64,000 bases of DNA from Escherichia phage KKE7M. Positions 1,280-25,704 of the stretch are shown piece by piece. Under the pieces are notes generated by a model. That model was given only the letters and a program-made list of their open reading frames with translations. It made no database searches and was not told the origin of the DNA. The stretch lies in sequence record PQ356295.1, one strand, 5' to 3'. Each line of letters starts with the position of its first letter. Within the stretch, counting starts at the first letter, position 1. A program made the position numbers and the translations under genes.

Positions 1280-1282
1280 CTG

Positions 1283-2020: not shown

Positions 2021-2022
2021 TT

Positions 2023-3033
2023 CTAGCCCTTCTTAATAATTGCAGATACAGATACAGACTCTACTTCAGTTGTCCAGTCTTTACCTTCCCTATCTCCTGT
2101 ATGAACAACAGACACCACCTTAAAACCACCATCATAGTTATGGCTCTTGAGCCAAACAGTTTTTTCTGGTAAGATAGCACCGTTCATTTCACATCTGAAC
2201 TTAACACCATCTGTAGGCTTTTTAGCTTTCTTAGAAGATTTGGTTACTTTTTGTGTCGGTTTAATATCATTGTGGAAAGGTTCTGGACTACCAATTAAAC
2301 CTGTTTCTGCACTAATATATGCACATCTTGCACTAGACATTTGTGATCTTGGTGTTACGTAAACAGATCCGTCTTGTATTGACACATTATGATCAATACC
2401 TTTACAGATACTTTCTAAGTAATGTGATGTGTTACCACACATAGCTGTTGCAGATGATAAAGTTTTCTCTGTGTCTACGTGAATATTACCTTCTGTAGTA
2501 CCTAAATCTTTAACTAAATCTTTAACAACCTTACTTACTTTTGTACCTTTCGGATAACTTCTGCTTGTCCTTGCTTCGGAGATGTTAATACCACCATCCA
2601 GACAATGTAACACTGTACGTCTGTCTGTATTGTTAAAGGTATCACTCACCCATTGCACCGTTCCCTTAAAGATCATAATTAACTCTTGACCTTCATAACC
2701 TACTGCCAAAGCAACAGCCAAGTTGTTACGAATACCCTTGTTAATATAATTAACAGTATCATCGCTTAGGTTATAAATAGTTATCTCAGCTTGATTAGGA
2801 TCTTTATTATTATCTTTTCTTATTGTGAAAGATATTTGGTGCTCCGTAATAACATACAAATTAGGGGTTGACTTTTTAGCATCCCCTAGTTTAGTATCTA
2901 AGTCTACTGTAGATTTGAAAGAGGAATTTTTTGTCCTTTTTTCTTTAGTATTAGTAGCTGTACCTATTAACAGTTTGTATGCTCTGTTTAGATTGGGTGC
3001 AGGAGCTTTTGTGTACTTTCTTTCTTCTGCCAT
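2023..3033 (-). CDS. putative baseplate hub / tail protein
   Basis: 336 aa ORF tightly packed in baseplate block; no specific motif recognised. Confidence 0.35.
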   Translation of the reverse strand: MAEERKYTKAPAPNLNRAYKLLIGTATNTKEKRTKNSSFKSTVDLDTKLGDAKKSTPNLYVITEHQISFTIRKDNNKDPNQAEITIYNLSDDTVNYINKGIRNNLAVALAVGYEGQELIMIFKGTVQWVSDTFNNTDRRTVLHCLDGGINISEARTSRSYPKGTKVSKVVKDLVKDLGTTEGNIHVDTEKTLSSATAMCGNTSHYLESICKGIDHNVSIQDGSVYVTPRSQMSSARCAYISAETGLIGSPEPFHNDIKPTQKVTKSSKKAKKPTDGVKFRCEMNGAILPEKTVWLKSHNYDGGFKVVSVVHTGDREGKDWTTEVESVSVSAIIKKG

Positions 3034-3049
3034 TTAAAAACTCCTTTTA

Positions 3050-3469
3050 TCATGCTTGATATGGAAGAGCGTCGATATAAACCAAAGCAAATCTTTTATC
3101 TACACCTGTGTCATAGTAATTAGGTCTACCATTTATTTTAACAGTATCTACCAAATAAAGTTGACCATCCGGCACAGATTCTATATACTTATATGGTTCT
3201 AGAAGATCTAAACCATTGGTTACTTTAAAAGTTACACTAGGATTGTCTCCTGATAAGCCTAATTGCATTTGCCACGCTTGATCTCTTGTATTCCATCTCA
3301 AACGTATATCATAATCTACCCCATCGAGAGTTACTGTATATGTTTGATCTGGGTACTGTTCTGTAGGTAAGTACCAAGAAGAATAACCTAACTTTTGATC
3401 AATAAATACCGCGTTATATCCGCTATTTGAAGTGCTTCTACTTACTCTTGAATAAGATGAAATAGCCAA
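3050..3469 (-). CDS. hypothetical tail protein
   Basis: 139 aa ORF in tail block. Confidence 0.4.
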   Translation of the reverse strand: MAISSYSRVSRSTSNSGYNAVFIDQKLGYSSWYLPTEQYPDQTYTVTLDGVDYDIRLRWNTRDQAWQMQLGLSGDNPSVTFKVTNGLDLLEPYKYIESVPDGQLYLVDTVKINGRPNYYDTGVDKRFALVYIDALPYQA

Positions 3470-3483
3470 AATATTACTCCTTA

Positions 3484-4200
3484 TTACTTACCGTCTGGAC
3501 TGTCATTACTCAAATGTTCAGTGCCTGTTGCTTGTCCTGCTCGTTTGTTCAAATCAGCATCTGGTTTGCTACCTGTTGCGTTTGTTTTGTTCTTAACACC
3601 TGTGTTTTTATTTGGTTGAGTCTTAAGTGCAATAGCGTTGGTTTCTCCGTAAGAAACTAATCTTACCTGTTCAAATTCCAAGTCAAATTGCATTGCATAC
3701 TCTGTTTGATATTCATATGATATGCCTTTCAAAATAACATTCTCATAGACCTTATGTTCTGTTATTAAAATGATAGGCTGTCTTTCATCAAATATTTTAT
3801 CTAAGTAAGTAATTGCTTGACTGATACGAGTACCGTTAACTCCAGCACTATATAGCATATCTCGCATTAATCTTACAGGTGTCTCTGTAATCATCCCTGA
3901 TAAAGAGAAAGTATTATTTTTAACTTGAACGTGATCGGACACATTAGCACCATTTTCTACAGGATAGCTAGTAACATCTGCTTGGCGTTTTACACCGATA
4001 TTTGGCACAGCATCAAAAACTATAGCTTGATAGTTTTGAATATATTGATCACTTGCACTATTGTAAACACTTGCTAAAATACAAAAACCATTCTCCCCTT
4101 TCACAGTAGAGGCAGAGTTATTTGTGTTTTTTGTAGAGTTTATATCTTGTTCCGCTTTATAAACCGCTTGAACGTGTTGTTCTGGAGTGTTTGCTGCCAT
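3484..4200 (-). CDS. hypothetical tail protein (first gene after tape measure)
   Basis: 238 aa ORF downstream of a terminator plus promoter-like element. Confidence 0.4.
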   Translation of the reverse strand: MAANTPEQHVQAVYKAEQDINSTKNTNNSASTVKGENGFCILASVYNSASDQYIQNYQAIVFDAVPNIGVKRQADVTSYPVENGANVSDHVQVKNNTFSLSGMITETPVRLMRDMLYSAGVNGTRISQAITYLDKIFDERQPIILITEHKVYENVILKGISYEYQTEYAMQFDLEFEQVRLVSYGETNAIALKTQPNKNTGVKNKTNATGSKPDADLNKRAGQATGTEHLSNDSPDGK

Positions 4201-4247
4201 ATAATTTTACCTCTTAATGTGATAAGAAACATTCTCCCTTATCACTC

Positions 4248-4278
4248 ATTTTATCACGAAAAACAACTCTTTGTCAAG
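4248..4278 (-). promoter_or_regulatory. sigma70-like promoter candidate (TTGACA ~18-19 nt TAAAAT)
   Basis: minus-strand TTGACA at 4278-4273 and TAAAAT at 4253-4248, directly after the terminator. Confidence 0.35.
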
Positions 4279-4289
4279 ACAAATAAAAA

Positions 4290-4316
4290 GCCCCGCCGAA
4301 GCGAGGCTTTATCCAT
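4290..4316 (-). terminator. stem-loop with U-run immediately downstream of tape measure gene
   Basis: minus-strand AAAGCCTCGCTTCGGCGGGGCTTT hairpin followed by TTTATTT. Confidence 0.5.
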
Positions 4317-6295
4317 TAACCACCAGTAGAAGATTGTCCACTGCTTAACTGAAGAGTTAAACCTTGTGAGAAGTTACTAAAACTGGTATTCATTGTTGCA
4401 TCTAGATAATTACTAAAACCATAGCCATCTGGAATAACATTAATCTGGAATGCGTTGTCTGGGATAACAACCGTATTCTCTACACTTAACGGTACTGGAA
4501 CACCTTGGCGTGGTGTTAGCATAGATGCTGTTAAATCAGGTCTATTGTAACCGATACTAGAAGCACTTGGGTTTAAGGCACTAGTTAAGAAACTACTATC
4601 AAAGTCACCTAAAGGTTGATTTTCAGGTTTATGTTGATCTCTTCCAATAGGCCAATAAGCCCAAGGATTACCACCAACCTGTGCATCGTAACCATACTGC
4701 GTACCATTATAATATTCTCTTACAGCTTCTTTAGTATTGTTTTTTGGCCCAACCTTATTTGAAAAATCAAGGAAGTATTTCGCAATTTTTGCAAGGCTAC
4801 TTACAATACTACCAGACATTTCACCAAGACCACGAGCAGCTTCCTGGAAAGTTTTCATATTTTCTGCAAAATCTGGTGCAGATTTTAAACCATCCATAAA
4901 ACCTACAAGTAAGTTATTGGTAAAACCTTCTCCTGCTGCACTAATTTGTGCTCTTAGCTTAACAAAATCTTGTGCTGCTTGGATGTTTTCGTCGTTAAGA
5001 GTTGCACCTGAATTACTTAACATTCTCAGGACTTCCATAAACTCTTTACCATTGTCCAAAAACATACGTTGGTAGTGCATTAAGTCATCACCAAGGTTTT
5101 CCATCAGACGACCAATTTGCGCAGAGTTCATTCCTCTTTTTTGACCTTCATTAACAAGTGCTTGAACAAAGTCTAAAGGTCTGTTCTGGAATTTAGCAAC
5201 ATCTTCTTTTGTCCAACCAAATTGGTTCATGATTTCATTAATACCACTATCTCCACCTTTCCATTTCCCTGATTTTTCATCAAACTCAGAGTGGAGTACA
5301 GTATTACCTAAACGTTCACGAACGTCTTTAATGTTATCAATAGCTTTAATAATACTAGCAGAGTCTACACCGTTCATCTCACCCCAAGTACGCATTGTTA
5401 GGATTGCGTTAGGGTTTACCTGTACGTTCTGACCACCTCTACTAACCATATTAACACGCTCTGCCGATGCAGTAATACCTTCGGCAATTTTGCTTATGCC
5501 TTGATATAAACCAGCACCTAAAAGAGCAGCACCAAACATAGCAGGGTTAAGAGCAATAGCAGCATTACCTACACCAGATAGCTTACGTTGTCTATCTCGC
5601 TGTCTTGCTTCTTTTTCTCTTCTTTGCTGACGTTCGAACTCCTTTCTTTCTCTTTCTCTAACACGCTGTCTTCTTTTATCTTCTGCTTCTTGCAGACGGG
5701 CAATTCTACGTCTAGCTCTCTCTTCATCAAGAAGTTGTGCATTCTTCTCTTTATGAGATCTGCGTAGTTCTTCTAACTGTCTAGCCAAAGTATTATTCAT
5801 TTGTTGGCTAGTGATCACACCTTTACGATAAAGTTCAACAGTTTCTTCTACAATCTTTTTAGATTTTTCTAGAATTCTGCTGTCTGCTTTTGTAAAAGGC
5901 ATAGCTTTAAAACTAAAATCGTCTTGCTTCATATTAGCAAGTGCTGCACGTTTAGCGGCGGCTTCTGCGGCTCTTTCCTCTGGTGTCTTACGTCCTCCAG
6001 AAGATCCAGAACCACCTCTACCACTTCCTCCTTTTCCACCACCACTTGAACCTCCGGTTGGTGGGATTGGTGGAGGATTACCGCCGCCAAGACCTGACAT
6101 TTGCTGCCTTATTCTTTTAGCATACTCTTCCATACTTTTAAACTGACGACGCATTTTAGTCATATTTAAAGATGGTTCAATAGATTCTGTAAAAGTTTTA
6201 AGGTTTTTAATTGCGTCTTTAGTATTTTTTAAACTGTCTTTATCTACAGTAAACGTTACTGTATTCTTAATCTTGGAAGTGTTAATTTCTAACAA
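4316..6295 (-). CDS. tail tape measure protein (candidate)
   Basis: 659 aa, Gly/Ser-rich linker, long Arg/Glu coiled coil, hydrophobic segment, lies between chaperone pair and baseplate genes. Confidence 0.55.
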   Translation of the reverse strand: MLEINTSKIKNTVTFTVDKDSLKNTKDAIKNLKTFTESIEPSLNMTKMRRQFKSMEEYAKRIRQQMSGLGGGNPPPIPPTGGSSGGGKGGSGRGGSGSSGGRKTPEERAAEAAAKRAALANMKQDDFSFKAMPFTKADSRILEKSKKIVEETVELYRKGVITSQQMNNTLARQLEELRRSHKEKNAQLLDEERARRRIARLQEAEDKRRQRVRERERKEFERQQRREKEARQRDRQRKLSGVGNAAIALNPAMFGAALLGAGLYQGISKIAEGITASAERVNMVSRGGQNVQVNPNAILTMRTWGEMNGVDSASIIKAIDNIKDVRERLGNTVLHSEFDEKSGKWKGGDSGINEIMNQFGWTKEDVAKFQNRPLDFVQALVNEGQKRGMNSAQIGRLMENLGDDLMHYQRMFLDNGKEFMEVLRMLSNSGATLNDENIQAAQDFVKLRAQISAAGEGFTNNLLVGFMDGLKSAPDFAENMKTFQEAARGLGEMSGSIVSSLAKIAKYFLDFSNKVGPKNNTKEAVREYYNGTQYGYDAQVGGNPWAYWPIGRDQHKPENQPLGDFDSSFLTSALNPSASSIGYNRPDLTASMLTPRQGVPVPLSVENTVVIPDNAFQINVIPDGYGFSNYLDATMNTSFSNFSQGLTLQLSSGQSSTGG

Positions 6296-6314
6296 GGGTA
6301 ATCCTCCGTATTAC

Positions 6315-6542
6315 TTATGAATCTGGAATTAATTTTTTCATAGCCGTATCCAGTTCTCTTATTGTTCTCTGTTGACCACGTTTAATATCCGCATCTTTAA
6401 CGTGAAGATCTTGTACATAATCTTCGAATGTTAAATATTCATAAATTTTAAGTAGATAATCTACACCATAATTATCTAACGAGGACAAGGTTTCGGAGGT
6501 ATTCTTAATTACCTTACAAAGAATTACTTCATACCATGTCAA
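6315..6542 (-). CDS. tail assembly chaperone -1 frame extension (GT-like)
   Basis: ORF in -1 frame relative to 6590..7072, open upstream across that gene's stop; slippery CCCCTTTTTTC at 6653-6663. Confidence 0.45.
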   Translation of the reverse strand: MTWYEVILCKVIKNTSETLSSLDNYGVDYLLKIYEYLTFEDYVQDLHVKDADIKRGQQRTIRELDTAMKKLIPDS

Positions 6543-6589
6543 GCTAAGGGTTTGTGAGGCAATTTCAATTGCTGATTTAATTGCCGGAC

Positions 6590-7072
6590 TTAACTCTTCG
6601 CTAGAGTCTCTATTCCTTGAAATTGGGTCAACAGTTTTCCGAAACCTCGTTTGAAAAAAGGGGCATAGTTCACCTCAAGAACTTTTGCAGCTAAGTCAAC
6701 AACTAATTCTGGGTGAGCAAAAAACAATTCATCAAAATTATCGGAAACACTGTGACCTGCTTCTGTGTAAACTTCATCTAAAATTTTACGTAAGAATGCG
6801 GCTAAGTTTTTTTCTTCCAGACCACTGAATAACTGGATCAGCGCCATAGCAATACGAGCTTCTAGATCTTCATCTGCTGACATAAGAGCAGTATTATACA
6901 TTGTCATAGGAACAGCTAGTACACTACCTAGTTCTGGAATCCTTTCAAAAACTTTAGTTGGACTCCACTTGAGAACTCTAAATTTTACACTGCGTCCTTC
7001 ATCCAGATCAATTTCAACCATTACTTCTGGACGAGCAAATTTTGCAATAGTATTATCTTTTTGTTGTTCCAT
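6590..7072 (-). CDS. tail assembly chaperone (G-like)
   Basis: 160 aa acidic protein immediately upstream of tape measure; contains slippery run near 3' end. Confidence 0.5.
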   Translation of the reverse strand: MEQQKDNTIAKFARPEVMVEIDLDEGRSVKFRVLKWSPTKVFERIPELGSVLAVPMTMYNTALMSADEDLEARIAMALIQLFSGLEEKNLAAFLRKILDEVYTEAGHSVSDNFDELFFAHPELVVDLAAKVLEVNYAPFFKRGFGKLLTQFQGIETLAKS

Positions 7073-7117
7073 TATTTCCTCTCTCTTTAAAAATAAAGGG
7101 CATTTCTGCCCTTTTTA

Positions 7118-7597
7118 TTACTGAATAGTTAGAGCACTAATAGAGTTAAGTGCGTTAACACCAACACCTACAGTAGAACGAAGTAGGCTTGCATCTTTAA
7201 GACCAATTACCCATTGGTTTTCTTGAATAGTTTCACCAATAGTGTCGTCCGGTTGGCTTTGAATCCAACCAATTGTGCTGATATAATATCCGCGAGGGTC
7301 TTCTAGATATACGCTAAATGCTACTTGACGAGTAGAATACATCGTTTGTGCATAAGCAGCAAGAACTTCGTTTGCTGGGGAAGTACGTTGCAGTGACATT
7401 GTTAGCGTACCTAAACGGTTACGACTAAGCGCCAAGGAAACGTCACCATCAGTACCTGAATATGGGTTGATGATATCGTTAGTTTTGTTAATAACAATTT
7501 TGGTATCTGCGGCGAAACCCCAAGGTTCCCAACCACCCAAAGACAGGATTACTTGAGAAGGATCATAGGCCATTACGCCAGTAAGCATTTTATCCAA
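7118..7597 (-). CDS. tail tube protein (candidate)
   Basis: 159 aa ORF directly after putative sheath gene; TTG start with AGGAG RBS 6 nt upstream. Confidence 0.45.
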   Translation of the reverse strand: MDKMLTGVMAYDPSQVILSLGGWEPWGFAADTKIVINKTNDIINPYSGTDGDVSLALSRNRLGTLTMSLQRTSPANEVLAAYAQTMYSTRQVAFSVYLEDPRGYYISTIGWIQSQPDDTIGETIQENQWVIGLKDASLLRSTVGVGVNALNSISALTIQ

Positions 7598-7629
7598 AGT
7601 GGATCTCCTTTTATACTACTTTTCATATA

Positions 7630-7647
7630 AGCGGGGTTGCCCCCGCT
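7630..7647 (-). promoter_or_regulatory. intercistronic hairpin between sheath and tube genes
   Basis: AGCGGGG-TTGC-CCCCGCT 7 bp stem, no clean U-run on minus strand. Confidence 0.4.
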
Positions 7648-7655
7648 GCTTTTAA

Positions 7656-9062
7656 TTATGAAGATACAGTAGAGCTATTGGAATTCTGGCTATTTGCAGT
7701 GCGGTTCGTCAGAACGTTTACCTGCACTTTAACATAGTGGAAGAATCCAGCATATACGTATTCAATAACCATACCATCAACCAAACGTGCATTGATTTGA
7801 GCATCAGTCATATCTGCACGAGATGGGATATAGATAGTAGGTTTAAGGCTTACCAGAAGTCCTGTTTCCTCTGAAGTTACTACCTCATTGGCAATAGAAC
7901 CATTGTTAATACCTACTTGGATTGGGTTTGCAGTAACAGCCTGACGAATCAAAGCAAGACCAGCAGAAGTTGCTCTAACACCACTACCAAGCATAGATTG
8001 CTGTTTGAATAGAGCAAACAGAGATTCTTCTACGCGAGCTTTGAACCACAGAGCGTGTACCACATAGTCAACATAGAAACCACTAACCATGAAGCCATCA
8101 CGGTAGAACAGAACACCGTGTTCTTTACGGTAAATATTACCATTCTGTTGAACGATAAAGTTTTCTGCTGTCTGACCAAGTTTTTCAATCTCGATACCAA
8201 CAAGGGTTTTACCATGCAGGGTAGTAGTACCTGGTGTTGCAGAGCAGATAGAACCAACTACAGCAGCCTCTGGGAACACTGTATCAGCGTTAGTCATCCA
8301 CAATGCCATACAAGTGTTATTGTAGCCCATATCACCTAAGCGTTCTAGAATGTTATCTTCTTCTTTAGTTAGAACACCTGGTTGCGAGGTAGAGAAGAAA
8401 TACACTTTATCATGCTCTTCTACATAACCTGCTAGATCGATAATATCTTGTTCTGCGTGAGAATCAGATAGTAACCAGAACCAACTGTTTTCATAGTCTG
8501 CAATTTTAGCAATATCCTCTAAGATATCATTTGCATATTCTACTTTAGTTGTGAATCCTGAACTATCCATAGTAGCGTATTTACCTGCAACTGGGGTTAC
8601 AGTGATAACACTACCATCGTTTGACACAGTGAAGAATTCTTTATACACCATGTCTGCGTTGATCATTTCTGTTAAACCAACAACAATCTCTTGCGCAGTT
8701 GCAGTATCATCGGCAACAAACTTGAAGTCCTTGCTTTTTGAATTTGCTTTAATAGTGATAACGTAAGTTGCACTATCTTCAACTACTGGAGTTAGAGTTG
8801 TTTTAGAAACATCACGCTTACCGACGATAACTTGTTCCGGTGCGAACAGACCGTCAAATAGTAGTTTTGCCATTTTATAAGCTGGATCGGCAGTGCCAAA
8901 ACCTGCTTGCAGAAGTGCGTCTGAAGAAGTGAAATAATCTACAAGATTGCCAGTAACGTTATGCCCTGTAAGAATTAGAGGGATATCAAACTGTGTTTCA
9001 CTAATTGAAGTAGCACCGTAGGTAAGGGTTACGGAAACTACCTTATCACGAAAAGTTGCCAT
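7656..9062 (-). CDS. tail sheath protein (candidate)
   Basis: 468 aa ORF upstream of tube-sized gene and chaperone/tape measure set; size and order typical of contractile tail. Confidence 0.45.
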   Translation of the reverse strand: MATFRDKVVSVTLTYGATSISETQFDIPLILTGHNVTGNLVDYFTSSDALLQAGFGTADPAYKMAKLLFDGLFAPEQVIVGKRDVSKTTLTPVVEDSATYVITIKANSKSKDFKFVADDTATAQEIVVGLTEMINADMVYKEFFTVSNDGSVITVTPVAGKYATMDSSGFTTKVEYANDILEDIAKIADYENSWFWLLSDSHAEQDIIDLAGYVEEHDKVYFFSTSQPGVLTKEEDNILERLGDMGYNNTCMALWMTNADTVFPEAAVVGSICSATPGTTTLHGKTLVGIEIEKLGQTAENFIVQQNGNIYRKEHGVLFYRDGFMVSGFYVDYVVHALWFKARVEESLFALFKQQSMLGSGVRATSAGLALIRQAVTANPIQVGINNGSIANEVVTSEETGLLVSLKPTIYIPSRADMTDAQINARLVDGMVIEYVYAGFFHYVKVQVNVLTNRTANSQNSNSSTVSS

Positions 9063-9082
9063 TTATGCTCCTGTTAGAAACT

Positions 9083-9739
9083 TTATTCCAATGAATTATC
9101 CGTTGGGATATACTTAATTAATGATCCATCATCAGTCGTCGTAAAGTAATAAGTTTTACTTCTGTGAGCAACAATGTAAATCTTATCCAAAGGAAGATCT
9201 ATTGGAGTAGGATCATCGTAATCATCTCTGAACGAATGAATGTTCATATTAATTGCTTCAATTTCGGTAGTTACTAAATCCTCAATAACCATCGTAGTAT
9301 TGAATGTAAGAAATATTCTCGCTCTTTGTTCAGTTTTATCTCCATCCAGAACAGTGTTAGCCTGTGCAACATTTGTTGCAGATAGAAAGCTAATACCTTT
9401 GGAATAAAGATACTGGTATTTTAATTCATCTGCACCACGAAGTGCCGCAAGAACATAACTTAAAAGTGTCATTGGTCTTCCTCTAAAAGCCATAAGTTCT
9501 ATTTCATACTTATTGTCCATTAGATAGGAAAACGCATCTTCACTAAAAGAATATTTTTGTGACCAACCACCTGAATCATCAGATGATACAATACGTAATG
9601 TCAGATATGGGGTTGTTGGTTTAACAAATGGCTTATCCATAACATAAACCGGAAGCCCCACGAGTCTTTGTAAGAACTTAGCGATATTTAATAATATCGT
9701 ATTTTCATACAATTCAATTTGTTCGTAGATATTAGCCAA
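9083..9739 (-). CDS. hypothetical neck/tail completion protein
   Basis: ORF 9083..9784 in track; likely start TTG at 9739 with GAGGAGG RBS, overlapping upstream stop. Confidence 0.4.
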   Translation of the reverse strand: MANIYEQIELYENTILLNIAKFLQRLVGLPVYVMDKPFVKPTTPYLTLRIVSSDDSGGWSQKYSFSEDAFSYLMDNKYEIELMAFRGRPMTLLSYVLAALRGADELKYQYLYSKGISFLSATNVAQANTVLDGDKTEQRARIFLTFNTTMVIEDLVTTEIEAINMNIHSFRDDYDDPTPIDLPLDKIYIVAHRSKTYYFTTTDDGSLIKYIPTDNSLE

Positions 9740-10148
9740 AATTACCACCCTCCTCAGAATAAGAATAGGTGTTATTCTGGTCATCTAGAATAGCAACACA
9801 ATGTGTGTGTATTAAGAAAGATGTTCTTGTCCAGTCTTTCAAAGAATAAATGGAAAACCATTGTCCATCTATTAGTATTTGGTCAGATAATTGATCTGAT
9901 CCTTGCTGGATGCCTCTGATTTCTGTTTTTGTCCAGAAGCTATATTGTGCCTTAGATCTGTATCCTTCTGGCAGTGCTTGAAGTGTTCTACCTGATATTG
10001 GTTGCAAACTTGCAGCCTCTATTGTAAAGTCTTCGTATGCTACTGTATTACCCATATTGGAAATTGGCGAATCAGGATCTTGAACATAAGTTCTTTTACG
10101 ACCCTGATACGTTGTTAGATCAAGGAGAGTAAATTGGTCTAATAGCAT
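9732..10148 (-). CDS. hypothetical neck protein
   Basis: 138 aa ORF in head-tail joining block. Confidence 0.4.
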   Translation of the reverse strand: MLLDQFTLLDLTTYQGRKRTYVQDPDSPISNMGNTVAYEDFTIEAASLQPISGRTLQALPEGYRSKAQYSFWTKTEIRGIQQGSDQLSDQILIDGQWFSIYSLKDWTRTSFLIHTHCVAILDDQNNTYSYSEEGGNFG

Positions 10149-20359: not shown

Positions 20360-20435
20360 TGGTCGTGGTAAACGGAGTCGAACCGTTGTTTCTCGATTAT
20401 CGGTCGAGTGTACTAACCATCTGTACGATACCACA
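20360..20435 (-). tRNA. tRNA, anticodon GAU (Ile) by hand fold
   Basis: 7 bp acceptor, T-arm AACGG-TTCGACT-CCGTT, anticodon loop CCGATAA, CCA encoded; C at position 33 is unusual. Confidence 0.5.
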
Positions 20436-20440
20436 ATAAT

Positions 20441-20523
20441 TGGCAGCAAGGTGAGGAATCGAACCCCTTGATCTATGGTTTGGAGCCATATTGAGTACCA
20501 TACTCTTTTAAATCTACCCAGCT
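20441..20523 (-). tRNA. tRNA-like, anticodon CCA (Trp), atypical D region
   Basis: clean anticodon arm TATGG-CTCCAAA-CCATA and T-loop TTCGATT, but 26 nt between acceptor and anticodon stem and imperfect acceptor pairing. Confidence 0.35.
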
Positions 20524-20581
20524 ATGAGTTCCTTGAAGTGTCAATGTAACTTAATCATTACACCAGAAGGGAGGTATTTAG

Positions 20582-20660
20582 TGGAGGCGGGAATCGGATT
20601 TGAACCGATGATCTCCAGCATATGAAACTGGCGAGGACGACCAGACTCCTCTATCCCGCG
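20582..20660 (-). tRNA. tRNA-Met (CAU), initiator-like
   Basis: acceptor CGCGGGA with 1-72 mismatch as in bacterial initiator tRNA, loop TTCATAT, T-loop TTCAAAT, CCA encoded. Confidence 0.6.
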
Positions 20661-20675
20661 CAATCTGTAGTAATT

Positions 20676-20760
20676 TGGTAGCTAAGGTGAGACTCGAACT
20701 CACAATCCCTTGGGGCAATACGTTCTAAGCGTATCGTGTATACCATTCCACCACTTAGCC
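20676..20760 (-). tRNA. tRNA-Leu (UAG)
   Basis: class II fold with long variable arm, anticodon loop CTTAGAA, T-arm GTGAG-TTCGAGT-CTCAC, CCA encoded. Confidence 0.65.
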
Positions 20761-20837
20761 ATAATAAGTACACCACTGTAAGAAGCCTCAATGTGCTATT
20801 GACAGTTAACCAAGTCTACTCCTTGGATGGTGTTATT

Positions 20838-20912
20838 TGGTGCAGAGAGATGGTAACGATCCATCCTTTCTACCTTTTCAGGGTAGCACTAATCCGTCTC
20901 AGCTATCTCTGC
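20838..20912 (-). tRNA. tRNA-Phe (GAA)
   Basis: perfect acceptor GCAGAGA/TCTCTGC, anticodon arm CTACC-CTGAAAA-GGTAG, unusual T-loop ATCGTTA. Confidence 0.6.
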
Positions 20913-20917
20913 AAATT

Positions 20918-20993
20918 TGGTCAGTGCGGCAGGACTCGAACCTGCGACCTGAAGCGTCCAAGGCTCCCACGCTACCAACTGCGCTACGCACTG
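20918..20993 (-). tRNA. tRNA-Pro (UGG)
   Basis: perfect 7 bp acceptor, anticodon loop CTTGGAC, T-loop TTCGAGT, CCA encoded. Confidence 0.65.
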
Positions 20994-21000
20994 TAAATCT

Positions 21001-21075
21001 TGGCTGGAGATCTAGGAATCGAACCTAGTCATCACGACTTCAAAGGCCGTTGCCTTCCCACTAGGCTAATCTCCA
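21001..21075 (-). tRNA. tRNA-Gln (UUG)
   Basis: perfect acceptor TGGAGAT/ATCTCCA, anticodon loop CTTTGAA, T-loop TTCGATT, CCA encoded. Confidence 0.65.
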
Positions 21076-21127
21076 ATAAAACTAAAAATCACTTAAAAAG
21101 AACCGCTAGAGTTTGAAGGAGAAAACC

Positions 21128-21154
21128 ATGAGCGAAAAGAGAAATTTTCTCTAG
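21128..21154 (+). other. 8-codon mini-ORF (MSEKRNFL) with strong RBS inside an 8 bp inverted repeat
   Basis: GAAGGAGAAAACC-ATG; flanked by CGCTAGAG (21104-21111) and CTCTAGCG (21149-21156); lies between two tRNA genes. Confidence 0.25.
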
Positions 21155-21174
21155 CGATTCCATTTAAATAATCT

Positions 21175-21249
21175 TGGAGCGAGTAACAGGACTTGAACCT
21201 GCACCTGGAGGGTGGAAACCTCATATGCTACCATTAACACTATACCCGC
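21175..21249 (-). tRNA. tRNA-Gly (UCC)
   Basis: acceptor GCGGGTA with one G-U, anticodon loop TTTCCAC, T-loop TTCAAGT, CCA encoded. Confidence 0.6.
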
Positions 21250-21260
21250 TTAACAATATT

Positions 21261-21290
21261 ACTCTAACATATTATTAGCCCCTTTGTCAA
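21261..21290 (-). promoter_or_regulatory. promoter candidate for tRNA transcript (TTGACA N18 TAGAGT), overlapping a hairpin
   Basis: minus-strand TTGACA at 21290-21285, TAGAGT at 21266-21261, about 12 nt upstream of the tRNA-Gly 5' end; hairpin 21277-21296. Confidence 0.35.
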
Positions 21291-21304
21291 GAGGCTTTTG
21301 ATAT

Positions 21305-21634
21305 TTATTTTAAAATAGTAGATGCACCACGTCTGTTTAGATATGCAACAGTAAAGTCCAAATCACCTATTTCTTCAGGTTCCCACTGACCTTCTAAGCC
21401 ATAGCAAGAACAATGATATGCGTGTACTTCATAAAACAGAGATGTTTTCATATCATAAAAATAAACGTGAGATTCACCTTCATAATATGCACAGTCATAA
21501 GTGGCAGAAAGAATTACAATGTTATCCTTATCTAACTCTACTTCATAATATCTTTCAACATCTTCGATATCATCAAAACCATCGAAAACATTGATGTTAA
21601 AATATTTCTCTAACTCTTTTTCTGTCACATACAC
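21305..21634 (-). CDS. hypothetical protein embedded in tRNA cluster
   Basis: 109 aa acidic ORF with AAAGGAG RBS (GTG start likely); no recognisable domain. Confidence 0.45.
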   Translation of the reverse strand: MYVTEKELEKYFNINVFDGFDDIEDVERYYEVELDKDNIVILSATYDCAYYEGESHVYFYDMKTSLFYEVHAYHCSCYGLEGQWEPEEIGDLDFTVAYLNRRGASTILK

Positions 21635-21651
21635 TCCTTTAGAGTTAAAAT

Positions 21652-21726
21652 TGGTGCTCCCACAAGGACTCGAACCCTGATAAGTTGCTTACAAGGCAAC
21701 CGTAATAGCCGTTATACGATAGGAGC
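21652..21726 (-). tRNA. tRNA-Thr (UGU)
   Basis: acceptor GCTCCTA/TGGGAGC, anticodon arm GTTGC-CTTGTAA-GCAAC, T-loop TTCGAGT, CCA encoded. Confidence 0.6.
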
Positions 21727-21732
21727 AATACT

Positions 21733-21809
21733 TGGACTCGACAGGATTCGATACCTGCAATTCCAGAAGCCTATTGGCGACTGGGGGTTTACCTTAACTC
21801 TACAAGTCC
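21733..21809 (-). tRNA. tRNA-like element without a canonical anticodon arm (possible pseudo-tRNA)
   Basis: 7 bp acceptor GGACTTG/CGAGTCC and T-arm with 8 nt loop TATCGAAT, but the 44 nt core does not fold into D and anticodon arms. Confidence 0.3.
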
Positions 21810-21816
21810 ATAATTC

Positions 21817-21901
21817 TGGCGATGGATCAAGGATTTGAACCTTGCTAGAACTTTCGTTCACGGATTAACAGTCCGTCGCCCAACCACTAGGCCAATCCAT
21901 C
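21817..21901 (-). tRNA. tRNA with anticodon GUU (Asn) but class II-like 15 nt variable arm
   Basis: perfect acceptor GATGGAT/ATCCATC, anticodon arm ACGGA-CTGTTAA-TCCGT, variable arm GAACGAAAGTTCTAG, T-loop TTCAAAT, CCA encoded. Confidence 0.5.
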
Positions 21902-21908
21902 TTTAATT

Positions 21909-21995
21909 TGGTGCAGGTAGTTGGACTCGAACCAACGAAGCCCCGAAGGGCAAGAGATTTACAGTCTCCAGCAATTGCCGCTATGCGATACCTAC
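21909..21995 (-). tRNA. tRNA-Tyr (GUA)
   Basis: class II fold, anticodon loop CTGTAAA, long variable arm with GCCC/GGGC stem, T-loop TTCGAGT, CCA encoded. Confidence 0.6.
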
Positions 21996-22000
21996 GTGTT

Positions 22001-22075
22001 TGGTACATCGTGAAGGATTCGAACCTTCGCTCCCTTGATTAAAAGTCAAGTGCCTTACCGCTTGGCTAACGATGC
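22001..22075 (-). tRNA. tRNA-Lys (UUU)
   Basis: acceptor GCATCGT/ACGATGT, anticodon arm CTTGA-CTTTTAA-TCAAG, T-loop TTCGAAT, CCA encoded. Confidence 0.65.
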
Positions 22076-22435
22076 ATACTCTTTACACCACCGTGTATGT
22101 CCAGCATAAGCCTTTGTACTATGGAATACTGCTCCGCAAACACACACCGTGGTTCTAATTCTGTTTCCCATGTCTTGGGAAATTCTTGTCTTCTTCATGT
22201 GACAAGCATGACACAAAAGTTGACATTTGGCAAGTTCTTCTTGCCATTTAGCCTCCGAACATGAACTCATTCGACTAATATAAAACTTCTTCTCGCTTGA
22301 ATCTTTATGATCAAATTCCAAGTCATCTACAGACCCACAATTAACACATTTACCTCCAAGCTGGAGGATTGCGGAAGCTCTTCGCTTCTGCCACCGAGTT
22401 TTCATGTATTCCCGCATATAATCATTACTTGGCAT
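22055..22435 (-). CDS. HNH homing endonuclease
   Basis: CVNCGS...EFDHKD...LLCHACH motif set; AGGAGG RBS; 3' end overlaps first 21 nt of tRNA-Lys. Confidence 0.7.
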   Translation of the reverse strand: MPSNDYMREYMKTRWQKRRASAILQLGGKCVNCGSVDDLEFDHKDSSEKKFYISRMSSCSEAKWQEELAKCQLLCHACHMKKTRISQDMGNRIRTTVCVCGAVFHSTKAYAGHTRWCKEYASLAKR

Positions 22436-22582
22436 ACATCCTCCTCGTATAAATTATCTTTAAAATAGCCAGTGTTTGCGGCACTTAGCTATGAAGTATT
22501 GGGGTATCGGTAAAGTGGTTGCCGCCACTTGCCGAAGATTTACTCTGCTAAAGTAAGAGTACAAGCTACATTAAAGATAACT

Positions 22583-22668
22583 TGGCGGTAGATGTAGGAC
22601 TTGAACCTACACGCCGTTTCCGACGACAGTTTAGCAAACTGTTGTGGCTACCATTTCACCAATCTACC
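22583..22668 (-). tRNA. tRNA-Ser (GCU)
   Basis: perfect acceptor GGTAGAT/ATCTACC, anticodon arm ACAGT-TTGCTAA-ACTGT, long variable arm, T-loop TTCAAGT, CCA encoded. Confidence 0.65.
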
Positions 22669-22713
22669 ATTTTTAATTATTCAAAACAACCTGAATCTGT
22701 TACTAATTGAATT

Positions 22714-22803
22714 TGGAGGAAGATAATGGAGTCGAACCATCACCGTATCGCTACAATGGGCCAGGGTTCAAACCTGGTTGCGCACCGCTGCGCCCTACCT
22801 TCC
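22714..22803 (-). tRNA. tRNA-Ser (UGA)
   Basis: anticodon arm CCAGG-TTTGAAC-CCTGG, long variable arm, T-loop TTCGACT, CCA encoded. Confidence 0.6.
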
Positions 22804-22867
22804 CGTTATCATACTTTAAATCTAACATAAAACTATCTTGCTTGTCAAGTAGTTTTTAAAAACTTTT

Positions 22868-22949
22868 TGGCCGGGGTGACAGGATTCGAACCTGCATACT
22901 CCAATTACTCGGTTAACGCCTGATTAGAAGTCAGGTGAGATACACCCCG
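22868..22949 (-). tRNA. tRNA-like, anticodon UCU (Arg), apparently lacking a D arm
   Basis: perfect acceptor CGGGGTG/CACCCCG and canonical T-arm, but only 7 nt between acceptor and anticodon stem (CCTGA-CTTCTAA-TCAGG) and 23 nt before the T-arm. Confidence 0.4.
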
Positions 22950-23030
22950 TTTTCACAGTAACTATAACAAAAAACTAAGTAAATGTCAAGATATTTTTAC
23001 TAAAATTATTATTTAAATTGAAGCCTAGGT

Positions 23031-23116
23031 TGGTGCAAGTGGAGGGATTCGAACCCTCAATCATTTAAGCGTTGCGTTTTAAGCACAATGTGTATCACCA
23101 ATTCCACCACACTTGC
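23031..23116 (-). tRNA. tRNA-Leu (UAA)
   Basis: perfect acceptor GCAAGTG/CACTTGC, anticodon loop CTTAAAA, long variable arm, T-arm GAGGG-TTCGAAT-CCCTC, CCA encoded. Confidence 0.65.
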
Positions 23117-23147
23117 ATATAGGAGATGCATAGCACCTCCTTTTAAA

Positions 23148-23223
23148 TGGTGGTTCCCCAGGGTTACAATCCCTGCCCTCGACACTTATGAGGTGTGCGC
23201 TCTCGTCAGTGAGCTATGGAACC
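23148..23223 (-). tRNA. tRNA with anticodon CAU (elongator Met or Ile2), unusual T-loop
   Basis: anticodon loop CTCATAA, D-stem GCTC/GAGC, T-loop ATTGTAA between CAGGG/CCCTG, CCA encoded. Confidence 0.5.
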
Positions 23224-23497: not shown

Positions 23498-23553
23498 AGT
23501 TTTCTCCTTTTTGTTTAACTTGGGCTTATCTTAGCAAATAACTAGCTATGTTG

Positions 23554-23664
23554 TCAACTAGTTTTTACAATATTTTTTCTTGATCTGTAACCTAGTGTAT
23601 AACCGCATACAAAAGATACAAGAGCAATAAAAACAGATAAGCCAAAAATAATTTCTGTAGACAT
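23554..23664 (-). CDS. small hydrophobic peptide (36 aa, single TM)
   Basis: ATG with AAGGAAACAGT RBS; MSTEIIFGLSVFIALVSFVCGYTLGYRSRKNIVKTS; below track cutoff. Confidence 0.3.
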   Translation of the reverse strand: MSTEIIFGLSVFIALVSFVCGYTLGYRSRKNIVKTS

Positions 23665-23970: not shown

Positions 23971-25704
23971 TTAGTCAACCTGGATGGTTCCCATAGTACG
24001 AAGAACCTCTACATCAACACGGTTGCGGATATCAGTGAATGTTTCATCACGTCCTTCTACTTGTGGTGTAATAACCTTACCATCCTTGAAGATAACTTGT
24101 AACTCATTGTCTTCATCCTGGATATCTTTAAAAGAAAGATTATCTACAAGAGAAAGATTACCATTGGTATCCTTAACAACCTTAATAAAACCTTTTGCAG
24201 AGCGTTTACCAGGATCAGTTTTAGGCTCCTTACTTACCAAAATTTCGTGTTCACCGATGATGCTACCTGTTGCTTTAACAGCAAAGCCAAAAGTATCTCG
24301 TGTATTGAACTGATAAGTATAACTACCAACACCAAATACAATATTGGAAGCTGCAAAACCTTTCTTCTTCAGTCGGCGTAAGATCTCGTGTTCTCGTTCA
24401 ACAGTAATAGAATCACCATAAATCATACCGATATGCTCATCAAGAACCTTGTAGCCTTTTCGGTTGATAGTACCACCAAACACTTCCCAAAGGATTTGAA
24501 TAGAACCTACTGCTTCACAATAAGGAATCTCATAAGTTTCATCAATACAGTCAGCAACACTACAATCCTGAAGAACATTGTAATACTTATTAACATCAGC
24601 CAAATGAACTACTTCAGTGGCTGTCGCAATACCATTATTTAAAAGATCTTCATAGTTGTCAAAAGATTCAACATTGTATCCTGCAACAACTTTAACCGGA
24701 TCTCCTGAATCTGGACGAATAACAAGACGACCATTTCGTGACATAATGGAATCTTTCAATTCTACCAGAATGCGAGTCAATACAGCCCAATAGTCATAAG
24801 AGTCTGCTACATATGAACAAAAACCTTCTGGAACAATTTCTTCGATATAACGACGAAGAAACTCTTTTTCTGCTACATAACGAAGCCCATCTACATCATC
24901 TTTAAGATGTGGGAAATGTTTCTTCAGATCTTCAACAATAGCTCCAATGTTAGTCGTTGCTACTGAATGTTCTGTTGCCGGAATCGAACCTGCAACAAAC
25001 TGATCATAATCAATACCATAATAGTCATGCACAGTTTCAATAGCCAGAATATTATCTGTTCCTGTGAACGATGCCAAGTGAGCGATACCACTCTTATAAC
25101 CATCTTCGATATTACTTAAACCACGTAGGCTAAAATCATGACACTGGAAGTTAACGTGATCAATATTATCACACGTTGCCATCGCATATGCCATAGCGAT
25201 ACGCTTATACTGAAAAGCTGCTGTGGCATTAGTCATTGTCTTCCAAGTTTCATCTGACAACAGTGTTTCCACATAGTTAGTTAACCAAAAGAATTTTTCT
25301 AAAGTATTATGCACAGTAAATACAGGAACACCAATAGGACACAAAACACCTTCTGGCAGAGATCGAACTTCCAGCGGAAGATAACCTAAATCGTGCAATT
25401 CTCCCCAACACTCAGCAGAAGGAGCAGAAGCACCTAATGCATTCTTAGACATACGATAAAATTTATTTACTGCTGCACTACGAGACATTTTAAAGAAGCC
25501 GTCCCACATAGTTACAAGAGCATCGGTTACTGCTCGACGAATACCTAAGACAATCACACCACGTGCTTCACGATCTGCATAGTGTGCAAAGTTTTTATCA
25601 TTACGAGGAGTTAAATTAGAGAAAATTAGTTTTGTATTTTGGTTGTACATCTGCTTGTGACCAGGTTTATACCAATCAGTAGCAAAAGGTGCAAAAATAT
25701 TCAT
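23971..25704 (-). CDS. nicotinamide phosphoribosyltransferase family protein (NAMPT/NadV-like; could be a Namat-type enzyme)
   Basis: 577 aa with RPDSGDP signature of the NAMPT/NAPRT family; adjacent to Prs-like gene. Confidence 0.75.
   Translation of the reverse strand: MNIFAPFATDWYKPGHKQMYNQNTKLIFSNLTPRNDKNFAHYADREARGVIVLGIRRAVTDALVTMWDGFFKMSRSAAVNKFYRMSKNALGASAPSAECWGELHDLGYLPLEVRSLPEGVLCPIGVPVFTVHNTLEKFFWLTNYVETLLSDETWKTMTNATAAFQYKRIAMAYAMATCDNIDHVNFQCHDFSLRGLSNIEDGYKSGIAHLASFTGTDNILAIETVHDYYGIDYDQFVAGSIPATEHSVATTNIGAIVEDLKKHFPHLKDDVDGLRYVAEKEFLRRYIEEIVPEGFCSYVADSYDYWAVLTRILVELKDSIMSRNGRLVIRPDSGDPVKVVAGYNVESFDNYEDLLNNGIATATEVVHLADVNKYYNVLQDCSVADCIDETYEIPYCEAVGSIQILWEVFGGTINRKGYKVLDEHIGMIYGDSITVEREHEILRRLKKKGFAASNIVFGVGSYTYQFNTRDTFGFAVKATGSIIGEHEILVSKEPKTDPGKRSAKGFIKVVKDTNGNLSLVDNLSFKDIQDEDNELQVIFKDGKVITPQVEGRDETFTDIRNRVDVEVLRTMGTIQVD

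Follow-up and report, generated by a model that had tools for sequence, protein, structure and literature searches.

Conserved members with a rebuilt core in the tRNA array of a phi92-like phage, among them a widespread candidate tRNA-Arg architecture without a D hairpin

Introduction

Are the misshapen genes in a phage transfer RNA (tRNA) array remnants in decay, or do they belong to conserved families whose core has been rebuilt? This question is raised by the tRNA cluster at positions 20360-23223 of a 64,000-nucleotide (nt) stretch of Escherichia phage KKE7M (PQ356295.1), referred to here as the window. A first-pass annotation, made from the sequence alone, had counted about 18 tRNA genes and described several members as non-canonical. 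The window derives from a phi92-like myovirus (Stephanstirmvirinae, Justusliebigvirus), and for a large lytic phage there is nothing unusual in such a cluster as such. The atypical members form conserved families that keep the acceptor stem, the T-arm, the anticodon loop and the synthetase identity nucleotides around a rebuilt core. The gene at 22868-22949 (minus strand), a non-canonical tRNA-Arg(UCU) of 82 nt with CCA, defines a widespread, phage-restricted and largely unannotated tRNA architecture whose anticodons point to arginine specificity.

Results

Content of the array

ARAGORN at default settings called 15 tRNAs between 20360 and 23223, all on the minus strand, and 0 in the rest of the window. 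The set comprised Ile-GAT, Met-CAT (twice), Leu-TAG, Leu-TAA, Phe, Pro, Gln, Gly, Thr, Asn, Tyr, Lys, Ser-GCT and Ser-TGA. The Rfam model RF00005 returned 14 tRNAs in the cluster at its gathering threshold, at which Ser-TGA and the first Met gave no match. One of its matches, at 22871-22949 with 38.6 bits (gathering score 29), is absent from the ARAGORN default output and constitutes a 16th tRNA. Lowering the ARAGORN threshold added calls at 21732-21810 and 20441-20518. Together with the comparative analysis described below, these searches give 17 tRNA genes and 1 tRNA-like RNA on one strand, interrupted by two ORFs (open reading frames), in agreement with the earlier count.

The suspicion of several non-canonical members was likewise borne out. 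The atypical features are an anticodon arm enclosed by the D-stem (Arg), 8/4 geometry (Ser and Trp), a base-paired variable arm (Asn) and swapped T-loop pairs. Four genes had been described as having good acceptor and T-arms with abnormal cores, and these are the loci 22868-22949, 21732-21810, 20441-20523 and Ser-TGA at 22714-22803; that at 21732-21810 is tRNA-like and cannot be a decoder. When checked with ARAGORN and Rfam, the odd loci were not refolded into canonical cloverleaves, and three of them are skipped by ARAGORN at default settings. In BLAST searches, the segment 20300-23300 matched Escherichia phage EC_OE_11 with 99.4% identity at 100% query coverage, and dozens of phi92-like genomes cover 88-100% of the cluster at 95-99% identity, which places its conservation far beyond chance.

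An arginine tRNA gene with a re-ordered core

The gene at 22868-22949 has the outer elements of a cloverleaf, namely a 7-bp (base pair) acceptor stem, a 5-bp anticodon stem with a 7-nt loop and a 5-bp T-stem with a UUCRA loop. The acceptor stem (1-7:72-78) is followed by U8, A9 and U10 and then by a three-pair helix, termed P2, which encloses the anticodon arm (15-31). The 5' strand of P2 is CUC (nt 11-13, 22937-22939) and its 3' strand is GAG (nt 40-42, 22908-22910), located 3' of the anticodon arm. The anticodon lies at 22926-22928 within the loop CUUCUAA. The 3' part consists of a bulge at 32-39, CGUUAACC, a D-loop-like single strand at 43-54, UAAUUGGAGUAU (22896-22907), a T-arm at 55-71 with the canonical 5 bp and the loop UUCGA(G/A)U, a G73-equivalent and CCA. 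The predicted structure of the window copy is (((((((...(((.(((((.......)))))........)))............(((((.......)))))))))))).... in dot-bracket notation. Only 7 nt (UAUCUCA) separate the acceptor stem from the anticodon stem, and 23 nt separate the anticodon arm from the T-arm. Both the sequence and the Rfam alignment lack a local D hairpin (10-13:22-25) between the acceptor stem and the anticodon arm; in the alignment of 22871-22949, the D-arm is deleted (15 model positions reduced to 4 nt) and the variable region is enlarged by 20 nt.

In order to examine this arrangement comparatively, homologs were collected from phage genomes and metagenomes. A BLAST search with the cluster found the 82-nt piece, unannotated, in unrelated phages at 81-89% identity. 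Alignment with the copies from Felixounavirus SME50, Sugarlandvirus and an unverified Salmonella phage revealed compensatory changes in three stems between invariant connectors. Four scans with different fixed segments, three of IMG/VR and one of JGI metagenomes, extended the family to at least 140 distinct sequences. A set of 26 distinct sequences gave 99.2% pairing in the acceptor, anticodon and T stems; both sides had changed in 14 pairs, and no shuffle out of 500 reached any of five measures. P2 was first indicated by Streptomyces phage Yaboi, which has UAUCGCC...GCGUAAU where the window has UAUCUCA...GAGUAAU and can form a CGC:GCG helix. Among the 140 matches listed, pair 11:42 is CG in 140, pair 12:41 is UA in 82, GC in 29, AU in 24 and CG in 5, and pair 13:40 is CG in 121, UA in 10 and GC in 9. 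Every one of the three pairs is Watson-Crick throughout (100%), with ten complementary versions of the helix. Shuffling of columns reached at most 0.61 and 0.86, and shifting the partner by one column collapsed the pairing. Positions 14 and 39 covary loosely (A/C, C/A, C:G, U.G and A:U), and the strand UAAUUGGAGUAU was invariant where the scan had left it free. This covariation argues strongly for the secondary structure given above, with the case for P2 being a comparative one. A mini-arm at 38-40:47-49, proposed by RNAalifold from the first 27 sequences, was rejected, as it showed one-sided Y/Y changes only and was broken in about 20% of 58 sequences.

Canonical phage tRNA-Arg genes at the same loci carry UAGCUCA at 8-14 and D-loops such as AAUGGAUA or AGUUGGAUA. 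Matching modules can be recognized in the rebuilt gene, where UAUCUCA at 8-14 corresponds to U8 A9, the 5' strand of the D-stem and A14, GAGU at 40-43 corresponds to the 3' strand of the D-stem, and AAUUGGAGUA at 44-53 resembles a D-loop with its GG-A. All modules of a normal tRNA-Arg are therefore present in a different order, together with a conserved bulge, CRUUAANN, between the anticodon stem and P2. Because C11, U12 and C13 pair with the GAG located 3' of the anticodon arm, this arm emerges from the end of the D-stem, in the place usually taken by the D-loop. The number of stacked layers, 5 + 1 (14.39) + 3 + 1 (U10.U43) = 10, equals that of the anticodon stem, 26.44 and the D-stem of a normal tRNA. 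In the proposed tertiary arrangement, P2 would stack on the anticodon stem and restore the L shape. The GG-A resembles G18 G19 A20 of canonical tRNA-Arg and may take over their role, with G48 and G49 reaching the T-loop as G18 and G19 do. A20 is an identity element for ArgRS (arginyl-tRNA synthetase), and A50 could serve in its place.

Arginine identity, context and distribution

Arginine anticodons were found in 139 of the 140 matches listed when the loop was left free (UCU 129, ACG 4, CCU 4 and UCG 2), with ACU in the remaining one, and the discriminator is G or A in 133 of these 140. The anticodon loop is intact, with 7 nt, U33 and a purine at 37. At least one ordinary tRNA gene lies within 2 kb of the element in 76 of 88 loci, with a median of 4 and without exception on the same strand; ARAGORN misses the rebuilt gene in 84 of these 88 loci. 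Within Ounavirinae, the slot between Ile-GAT and Ser-TGA is occupied by a canonical tRNA-Arg(TCT) in Mooglevirus Sf14 and by the rebuilt form in Felixounavirus SME50. In the window, the gene is preceded by a sigma-70-like promoter at 22961-22989 (TTGACA-17-TATAGT, 11/12, TG extension), which ends 11 nt ahead of the gene's first base.

AGA makes up 32% of the arginine codons in the window ORFs (13.7 per 1000 codons), several-fold above the usage of E. coli, and is used by the phage about as often as its main arginine codon. Neither the window nor the full tRNA annotation of SME50 shows a candidate AGA decoder other than the rebuilt gene; ARAGORN at default settings found no other tRNA-Arg in the 64-kb window.

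At least 80% of the element is covered by 253 GenBank phage records, including Justusliebigvirus, Felixounavirus, Sugarland-like Klebsiella phages and the PBECO4-like jumbo phages of about 350 kb. It also occurs in Escherichia and Klebsiella phages of about 143-145 kb (UPEC06, AV124 and KpS8), in 69-70-kb Escherichia phages, in Streptomyces phages and on viral contigs from soil, freshwater and marine samples. Among the matches listed, GenBank labels for the element were 'none', 'tRNA-OTHER' or, in Yaboi, 'tRNA-Val(aac)'. A search for the pattern in 185,579 bacterial and archaeal species genomes gave 4 matches, all on contigs of metagenome-assembled genomes. The family is thus essentially phage-restricted and almost never annotated. 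The Yaboi label (NC_048730, L063:1495-1573) places a valine 'anticodon' in the bulge CGUUAAC of a rebuilt Arg(UCU) gene, and similar mislabelling is likely in other actinophage records.

A metagenome contig (L188; Ga0255783_10000721, 1-12056) carries three rebuilt copies, with anticodons ACG, CCU and UCU. This viral-looking stretch holds 30 tRNAs and a tmRNA call in 12 kb, and two canonical Arg(UCU) genes lie beside the rebuilt copies, which supply its only ACG and CCU anticodons.

The loci of SME50 and Sugarland suggested an obligate link between the element and HNH endonuclease genes, and this idea was abandoned. In SME50 (L003:2502-2946) and Sugarland (L004:2501-3100), unrelated HNH genes begin within or just after the rebuilt gene. 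Since the two are adjacent in 5 of 88 loci, with two unrelated HNH proteins, the association is occasional. The literature searched, which included few subscription journals so that an earlier description may exist, yielded no description of a phage tRNA lacking the D-arm or of the present architecture.

A tryptophan tRNA of the 8/4 type with its own long-range helix

The locus at 20441-20523 (minus strand; X4) most likely encodes a non-canonical tRNA-Trp(CCA) of 83 nt. It scores 22.9 bits with Rfam, below threshold, and is reported by ARAGORN at the lowered threshold. It has an 8-bp acceptor stem with A1:U72 (G.U in one homolog) and a conserved mismatch at 4:69, followed by A9, the segment UAAAA, a 5-bp hairpin with a UGG loop, the anticodon CCA at 20481-20483, a 4-bp T-stem, G73 and CCA. 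We take A1:U72, G73 and CCA to match the identity set of E. coli TrpRS. Homologs were found in phi92, Klebsiella phage FKP3, Hafnia phage Zyzzx, Pectobacterium phage POP15, Citrobacter phage Tr1 and a 147-kb IMG/VR contig. Across the family, a hairpin of 4-5 bp is capped by YGG and the anticodon arm is normal with CUCCAAA.

Among the seven aligned sequences, 92% of cells were paired and 14 pairs had changed on both sides; 0 of 500 shuffles matched this on four of five measures and 1 of 500 did so for further pair types. The 8th acceptor pair (8:72) is UA in 5, AU in 1 and CG in 1, whereas the alternative 7/5 reading leaves 49:65 mismatched in 6 of 7 sequences, so that a 5th T-stem pair is absent from the alignment. 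A long-range helix is indicated at 10-12:52-54 (10:54 GC/AU, 11:53 AU/GC/CG and 12:52 UA in 5 of 7). Its 3' strand ends 2 nt before the T-stem, and it encloses the small hairpin and the anticodon arm. As in the arginine gene, the position of the D-stem 5' strand is used again. The variable region measures 5-6 nt, part of it in the long-range helix, and a long variable arm is absent.

The element is covered by 65 records and is unannotated in 64 of them; in Zyzzx, only the end of an adjacent tRNA-Ser annotation overlaps it. An exact-pattern scan for the hairpin returned only loci already known, and a covariance model was needed for further relatives. It identified 83-nt relatives, all with CCA, in Felixounavirus, Mooglevirus (unannotated) and Seunavirus. 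Those of SME50 (L003:3084-3166) and Sf14 (L048:2360-2442) are unannotated 8/4 Trp(CCA) genes located just upstream of tRNA-Ser(TGA), and their anticodon stem has 4 bp, leaving a 9-nt loop. A 4-bp anticodon stem with a 9-nt loop has been linked to UGA reading by tRNA-Trp (PMC13092985, 2026). The same model also found 8/4 tRNA-Cys(GCA)-like elements with U73 and a GUUAAC linker on unrelated viral contigs (L065:10290-10371, minus strand, and L185:8663-8742).

Other atypical members

The tRNA-Ser(UGA) at 22714-22803 (minus strand, ARAGORN) has an 8-bp acceptor stem, GGAAGGUA/UAUCUUCC, and a 4-bp T-stem, AUGG/CCAU, with no spacer between them. Its D-stem has 5 bp and a tetraloop (GCGCA-GCGG-UGCGC), the variable arm has 7 bp and the anticodon is UGA. 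Its best Rfam match is tRNA-Sec with 35.3 bits, below threshold. The same geometry with different sequences was seen in homologs from Felix-like and other phages, and the phi92 annotation lists Ser-TGA as pseudo. This gene is of the published 8/4 type and hence of a known kind.

The tRNA-Asn(GUU) at 21817-21901 (minus strand, 85 nt; ARAGORN and Rfam) has a long variable arm, GAAC-GAAA-GUUC, which forms a 4-bp stem with a GAAA loop. The stem is GAAC/GUUC in the window, GUUC/GAAC in Phapecoctavirus PNJ1809-36 and GAGU/ACUC in Seunavirus SSE121, and the arm is fully compensatory because its strands differ and still pair in three genera. At least 80% of the gene is covered by 133 phage records, and the anticodon is GUU in all aligned homologs. 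GUU and G73 are asparagine identity elements. Bacterial tRNA-Asn is class I-shaped, and a class II-shaped tRNA-Asn is unusual.

Unusual T-loops had also been noted, and they are present as AUCGUUA in tRNA-Phe(GAA) (20838-20912, minus strand; ARAGORN and Rfam) and as AUUGUAA in the first tRNA-Met(CAT) (23148-23223, minus strand), which ARAGORN finds and which lies below the reach of the Rfam tRNA model. Both carry A54/U58 in place of U54/A58. In the phi92 annotation, the Phe gene is marked pseudo and the first Met is a 'hypothetical tRNA'. The first Met has the D-loop ACUGACGA and an A.G mismatch at 7:66. Compared with tRNA-Met of Erwinia phage FBB1, it combines GA with AUUGUAA where the latter combines GG with AUCGUAA, and the tertiary pair G19:C56 thus appears to have been exchanged for A19:U56. 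The combination A54..U58 was found in 39 of 898 ARAGORN-called tRNAs of the fetched loci (about 4%, in many isotypes), compared with 8 for A..A; one reading is that A54:U58 represents the reverse-Hoogsteen pair swapped as a unit. A54 with U58 would preclude formation of m5U54. The second tRNA-Met(CAT) (20582-20660, minus strand, 79 nt; ARAGORN and Rfam) has an initiator-like acceptor and T-arm, a C1xC72 mismatch and a 5-bp D-stem. Compared with E. coli tRNA-fMet, it lacks the three G:C pairs of initiator anticodon stems.

A tRNA-like RNA that cannot decode

The RNA at 21732-21810 (minus strand; X2) was called by ARAGORN at the lowered threshold only. It comprises a 7-8-bp acceptor stem, a D-arm-like segment and a T-arm with an 8-nt loop, UAUCGAAU, and has no encoded CCA. 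Its central arm consists of 4 bp, a 2x2 internal loop and 3 bp; as this hairpin is capped by an AAUA tetraloop, X2 has no 7-nt anticodon loop and cannot decode. The phi92 version has a central 4-bp stem with a 6-nt loop, and comparison of the two revealed compensatory changes in two acceptor pairs, one T pair and one central pair. The window version recurs at 94-100% identity in 87 records, most of them Phapecoctavirus, and is never annotated; for the neighboring tRNA-Asn, identity in those records is only about 75%. X2 might act as a processing or decoy element.

Comparison with known systems

The closest parallel to the arginine gene is the metazoan mitochondrial tRNA-Ser(AGY/GCU) without a D-arm, represented by the human tRNA (PMC9427863), as both have no D hairpin. 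In each, a CUCA connector pairs with nucleotides beyond the 3' side of the anticodon arm (in the human tRNA, these belong to the vestigial variable loop), and an A.C pair lies beside it. In human tRNA-Ser(GCU), this pairing extends the anticodon stack (PMC9427863), and stacking of the connector on the anticodon stem would be common to both if it also occurs in the phage RNA. The mitochondrial tRNA has lost the tertiary core and the elbow, its 6-bp T-arm is remodelled and carries a non-canonical T-loop, and it depends on a synthetase that has co-evolved with it (PMC9427863). The phage gene, however, has a canonical 5-bp T-stem, a UUCGA T-loop, a bulge of 7-8 nt and a 12-nt strand with an invariant GG-A; given this conserved bulge and D-loop-like strand, it probably retains the elbow. 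It also differs in having arginine rather than serine identity and in being phage-encoded, with no sign of common descent.

With canonical phage tRNA-Arg(UCU) (Sf14 gt010, L048:2118-2194), the rebuilt gene shares the loop CUUCUAA, the G/A discriminator, CCA, the T-arm, U8 A9, the CUC:GAG D-stem, a D-loop-like AAUUGGA(G)UA, the same slot in Ounavirinae and, in some members, the same anticodon stem. It differs in that the anticodon arm is nested in the D-stem, the D-loop-like strand is located 3' and the bulge CRUUAANN is added.

The 8-bp acceptor, 4-bp T-stem, long D-stem with tetraloop and long variable arm of Ser-UGA are those of the (8/4) tRNA-Ser described by Mukai et al. 2017 (PMC5389517). 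The Trp gene resembles the (8/4) tRNAs of that study in its geometry and in its D hairpin with a long stem and tiny loop; unlike the (8/4) allo-tRNAs, it has no long variable arm and has a 10-nt linker and the long-range helix 10-12:52-54. Ser, His, Cys and Sec-like tRNAs with 8/4 geometry have been described, phages included, and the main text of that paper contains neither 'Trp' nor 'tryptophan' (PMC5389517). The Asn gene is like the class II tRNAs of bacteria (Leu, Ser and Tyr) in having a base-paired, covarying variable arm and unlike them in its GUU anticodon, its G73 discriminator and the shortness of this arm (4 bp). Phage T4 reportedly encodes two small stable tRNA-like RNAs, species 1 and 2, in its tRNA cluster. 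X2 is similar by description to these RNAs, being conserved, non-decoding and placed among tRNA genes with tRNA-like acceptor and T-arms; it differs in being tRNA-sized and in keeping a D-arm-like segment.

Organization of the array

The remaining members were found by both ARAGORN and Rfam and are also on the minus strand. They are tRNA-Leu(TAA) (23031-23116, canonical class II), tRNA-Ser(GCT) (22583-22668, canonical class II), tRNA-Lys(TTT) (22001-22075), tRNA-Tyr(GTA) (21909-21995, class II), tRNA-Thr(TGT) (21652-21726), tRNA-Gly(TCC) (21175-21249), tRNA-Gln(TTG) (21001-21075), tRNA-Pro(TGG) (20918-20993), tRNA-Leu(TAG) (20676-20760, class II) and tRNA-Ile(GAT) (20360-20435).

The two interrupting ORFs named by the first-pass annotation are both in place on the minus strand. 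That at 22055-22435 (126 residues) matched 12 PHROG families, 9 of them annotated as HNH endonuclease (best phrog_4234, E 4.6e-25), and that at 21305-21634 (109 residues) matched phrog_8792, function unknown; at E <= 0.01, Pfam gave no match for either. The last 7 codons and the stop of the HNH ORF are the first 21 nt of tRNA-Lys (22055-22075). Most relatives, covering 88% of the query, do not have this ORF, and phi92 is among the genomes that lack it. Because the homologous upstream spacer of phi92 abuts tRNA-Lys directly, a cassette of about 370 nt (ribosome-binding site plus ORF) looks inserted exactly at the 5' boundary of tRNA-Lys. The 147-nt spacer upstream of the ORF (22436-22582, minus strand) is kept in relatives without it and shows moderate structure (z = -2.1).

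Four near-consensus sigma-70-like promoters were identified on the minus strand, each with TTGACA, a spacer of 17-18 nt and a TG-extended -10 element. They are located at 23528-23557, at 22961-22989 upstream of the arginine gene, at 22819-22848 upstream of tRNA-Ser(TGA) (TTGACA-18-TAGATT) and at 21261-21290 upstream of tRNA-Gly (TTGACA-18-TAGAGT). Promoter-like sites overall numbered 18, compared with 7.3 expected. With one promoter upstream of the cluster and three spaced through it, the array probably comprises several transcription units.

For the 99-nt spacer between Gly and Gln (21076-21174, minus strand), folding gave a long hairpin that is closed by a 12-bp stem and has a U-run behind it (z = -4.1; 1 in 200 shuffles folded equally well). 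This spacer could be a terminator or a small RNA; the corresponding phi92 spacer is longer and also has an annotated small 'rIII' ORF. The 77-nt spacer between Phe and Leu (20761-20837, minus strand) has a terminal stem of 6-7 bp and a hairpin of 5 bp with 7 nt. It was considered as a fifth odd tRNA and rejected, as it has no T-arm motif, occurs in close relatives only and has z = -1.7. Beside the cluster, the 577-residue ORF at 23971-25704 (minus strand), with its translation read by eye, presumably encodes a nicotinamide phosphoribosyltransferase. Four GenBank records labelled 'Campylobacter phage' (MG065639, MG065645, MG065656 and MG065689) are about 96% identical to the cluster, and this host label looks doubtful.

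Discussion

Decay, artefact or function

The account that we consider probable for the locus as a whole is a phi92-like array of 17 tRNAs and a tRNA-like RNA whose rebuilt-core members are conserved. Several sigma-70-like promoters would drive the array, and a free-standing HNH cassette and a small ORF would have been inserted into it. Could the odd loci instead be ordinary cloverleaves hidden by wrong boundaries, an intron or the opposite strand? Lowered-threshold ARAGORN does offer an opposite-strand tRNA-Trp over the arginine locus and alternative calls around X2, but these folds are full of mismatches, and the opposite-strand candidate was rejected for that reason. The same-strand arginine structure is 99% paired with covariation, and the Rfam alignment shows a D-arm deletion with a 20-nt insertion rather than a shifted cloverleaf. 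Treating the first hairpin as a D-arm fares no better, as the 23 nt that follow it permit no pairing into an anticodon arm. For the arginine locus, the pairing and the Rfam alignment already refute such an artefact, and for the cluster we regard it as next to impossible. Functionless pseudogenes or fragments, decaying after rearrangement and homing-endonuclease activity, are a very improbable explanation. In the phi92 record, Ser-TGA and Phe carry a pseudo flag and the first Met is entered as hypothetical, default ARAGORN skips three loci, X2 has neither an anticodon loop nor CCA, the spacer at 20761-20837 folds no better than shuffles, and HNH genes adjoin the arginine element in some phages. 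However, Arg, Trp, the Asn arm, the Met tertiary pair and, to a lesser degree, X2 carry compensatory double changes, unpaired connectors are invariant, and the anticodons of the arginine family are confined to arginine. Such changes suggest that the Arg, Trp, Asn and Met members are maintained by compensatory evolution, with Ser belonging to a published non-canonical class. On this comparative evidence, we consider decay refuted for these four, with partial evidence for X2.

An alternative that deserves more weight, even though we think it unlikely, is that the rebuilt RNAs are real and selected but act outside translation, as mimics, as decoys or sponges for defence nucleases, as binders of synthetases or modification enzymes or as punctuation for RNase P and RNase Z. 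X2 is highly conserved without being able to decode, canonical Arg(UCU) genes are kept beside rebuilt ones on some contigs, and there is no known case of a tRNA that lacks the D hairpin and functions with the EF-Tu and ribosomes of bacteria. According to PMC11551756, every bacterial tRNA known is canonical, and the irregular tRNAs of PMC5389517 are charged and unused in translation. A decoy, on the other hand, has no need of four arginine anticodons, of a 7-nt loop that is intact and keeps U33 and a purine at 37, of a G/A discriminator or of an encoded CCA. Moreover, the rebuilt gene is the sole candidate AGA decoder found in the window and SME50, in a window with frequent AGA codons, and the rebuilt copies on contig L188 alone supply the ACG and CCU anticodons of that stretch.

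For a role in translation, the steps would be as follows. Host RNase P would process the rebuilt arginine RNA, host ArgRS would charge it, and the RNA would decode AGA. More speculatively, the rebuilt cores (Arg, 8/4 Trp, 8/4 Ser, long-arm Asn and swapped T-loops) may be poor substrates for host tRNA-directed nucleases or modification enzymes. A defence nuclease specific for tRNA-Arg was considered as a rationale and set aside, as the retron Eco2 paper lists tRNA-Arg among many targets. Whether 22868-22949 represents a large phage-specific class of tRNA-Arg with a re-ordered core, charged by ordinary ArgRS, used by bacterial ribosomes and forming, with the 8/4 Trp, part of a broader core-rebuilding strategy, for example for nuclease escape, seems to us about evenly poised.

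Several points weigh against this fuller interpretation. We infer expression, charging and decoding of the cluster RNAs from their sequences, acceptance of a tRNA without a D hairpin by bacterial EF-Tu and the ribosome is likewise presumed, and the rationale of immune evasion is speculative. CCA is encoded in 94 of the 140 arginine matches listed, and a third are without it. A canonical tRNA-Arg(UCU) is also present on contigs L188, L025, L056 and L061 and a canonical CCU gene on L082, so the rebuilt form is not simply a replacement. The conservation figures derive from pattern-anchored scans, in which each conserved segment was left free at least once, and the Trp family comprises 7 sequences. 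Finally, the nearest-neighbor energy for P2 averages +1.15 kcal/mol, and unaided folding yields the helix in only 4 of 58 sequences; as the energy model does not favor P2, the helix must depend on tertiary contacts.

Implications

Sequenced phages with the rebuilt arginine gene number in the hundreds and infect E. coli, Salmonella, Klebsiella and Streptomyces, and standard gene finders miss the gene. If the proposed role is correct, a natural tRNA lacking the D hairpin would for the first time be seen to work outside mitochondria. Charging and decoding of this RNA would show what the bacterial translation apparatus requires of a tRNA core and would provide a natural scaffold for orthogonal tRNA design. 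The tRNA inventories of phages used in studies of codon usage and tRNA immunity would be corrected, and relatives of phi92 and Felix O1 would gain their missing AGA and UGG decoders. It would also tie the remodelling of phage tRNAs, in a testable way, to host defences that target tRNA.

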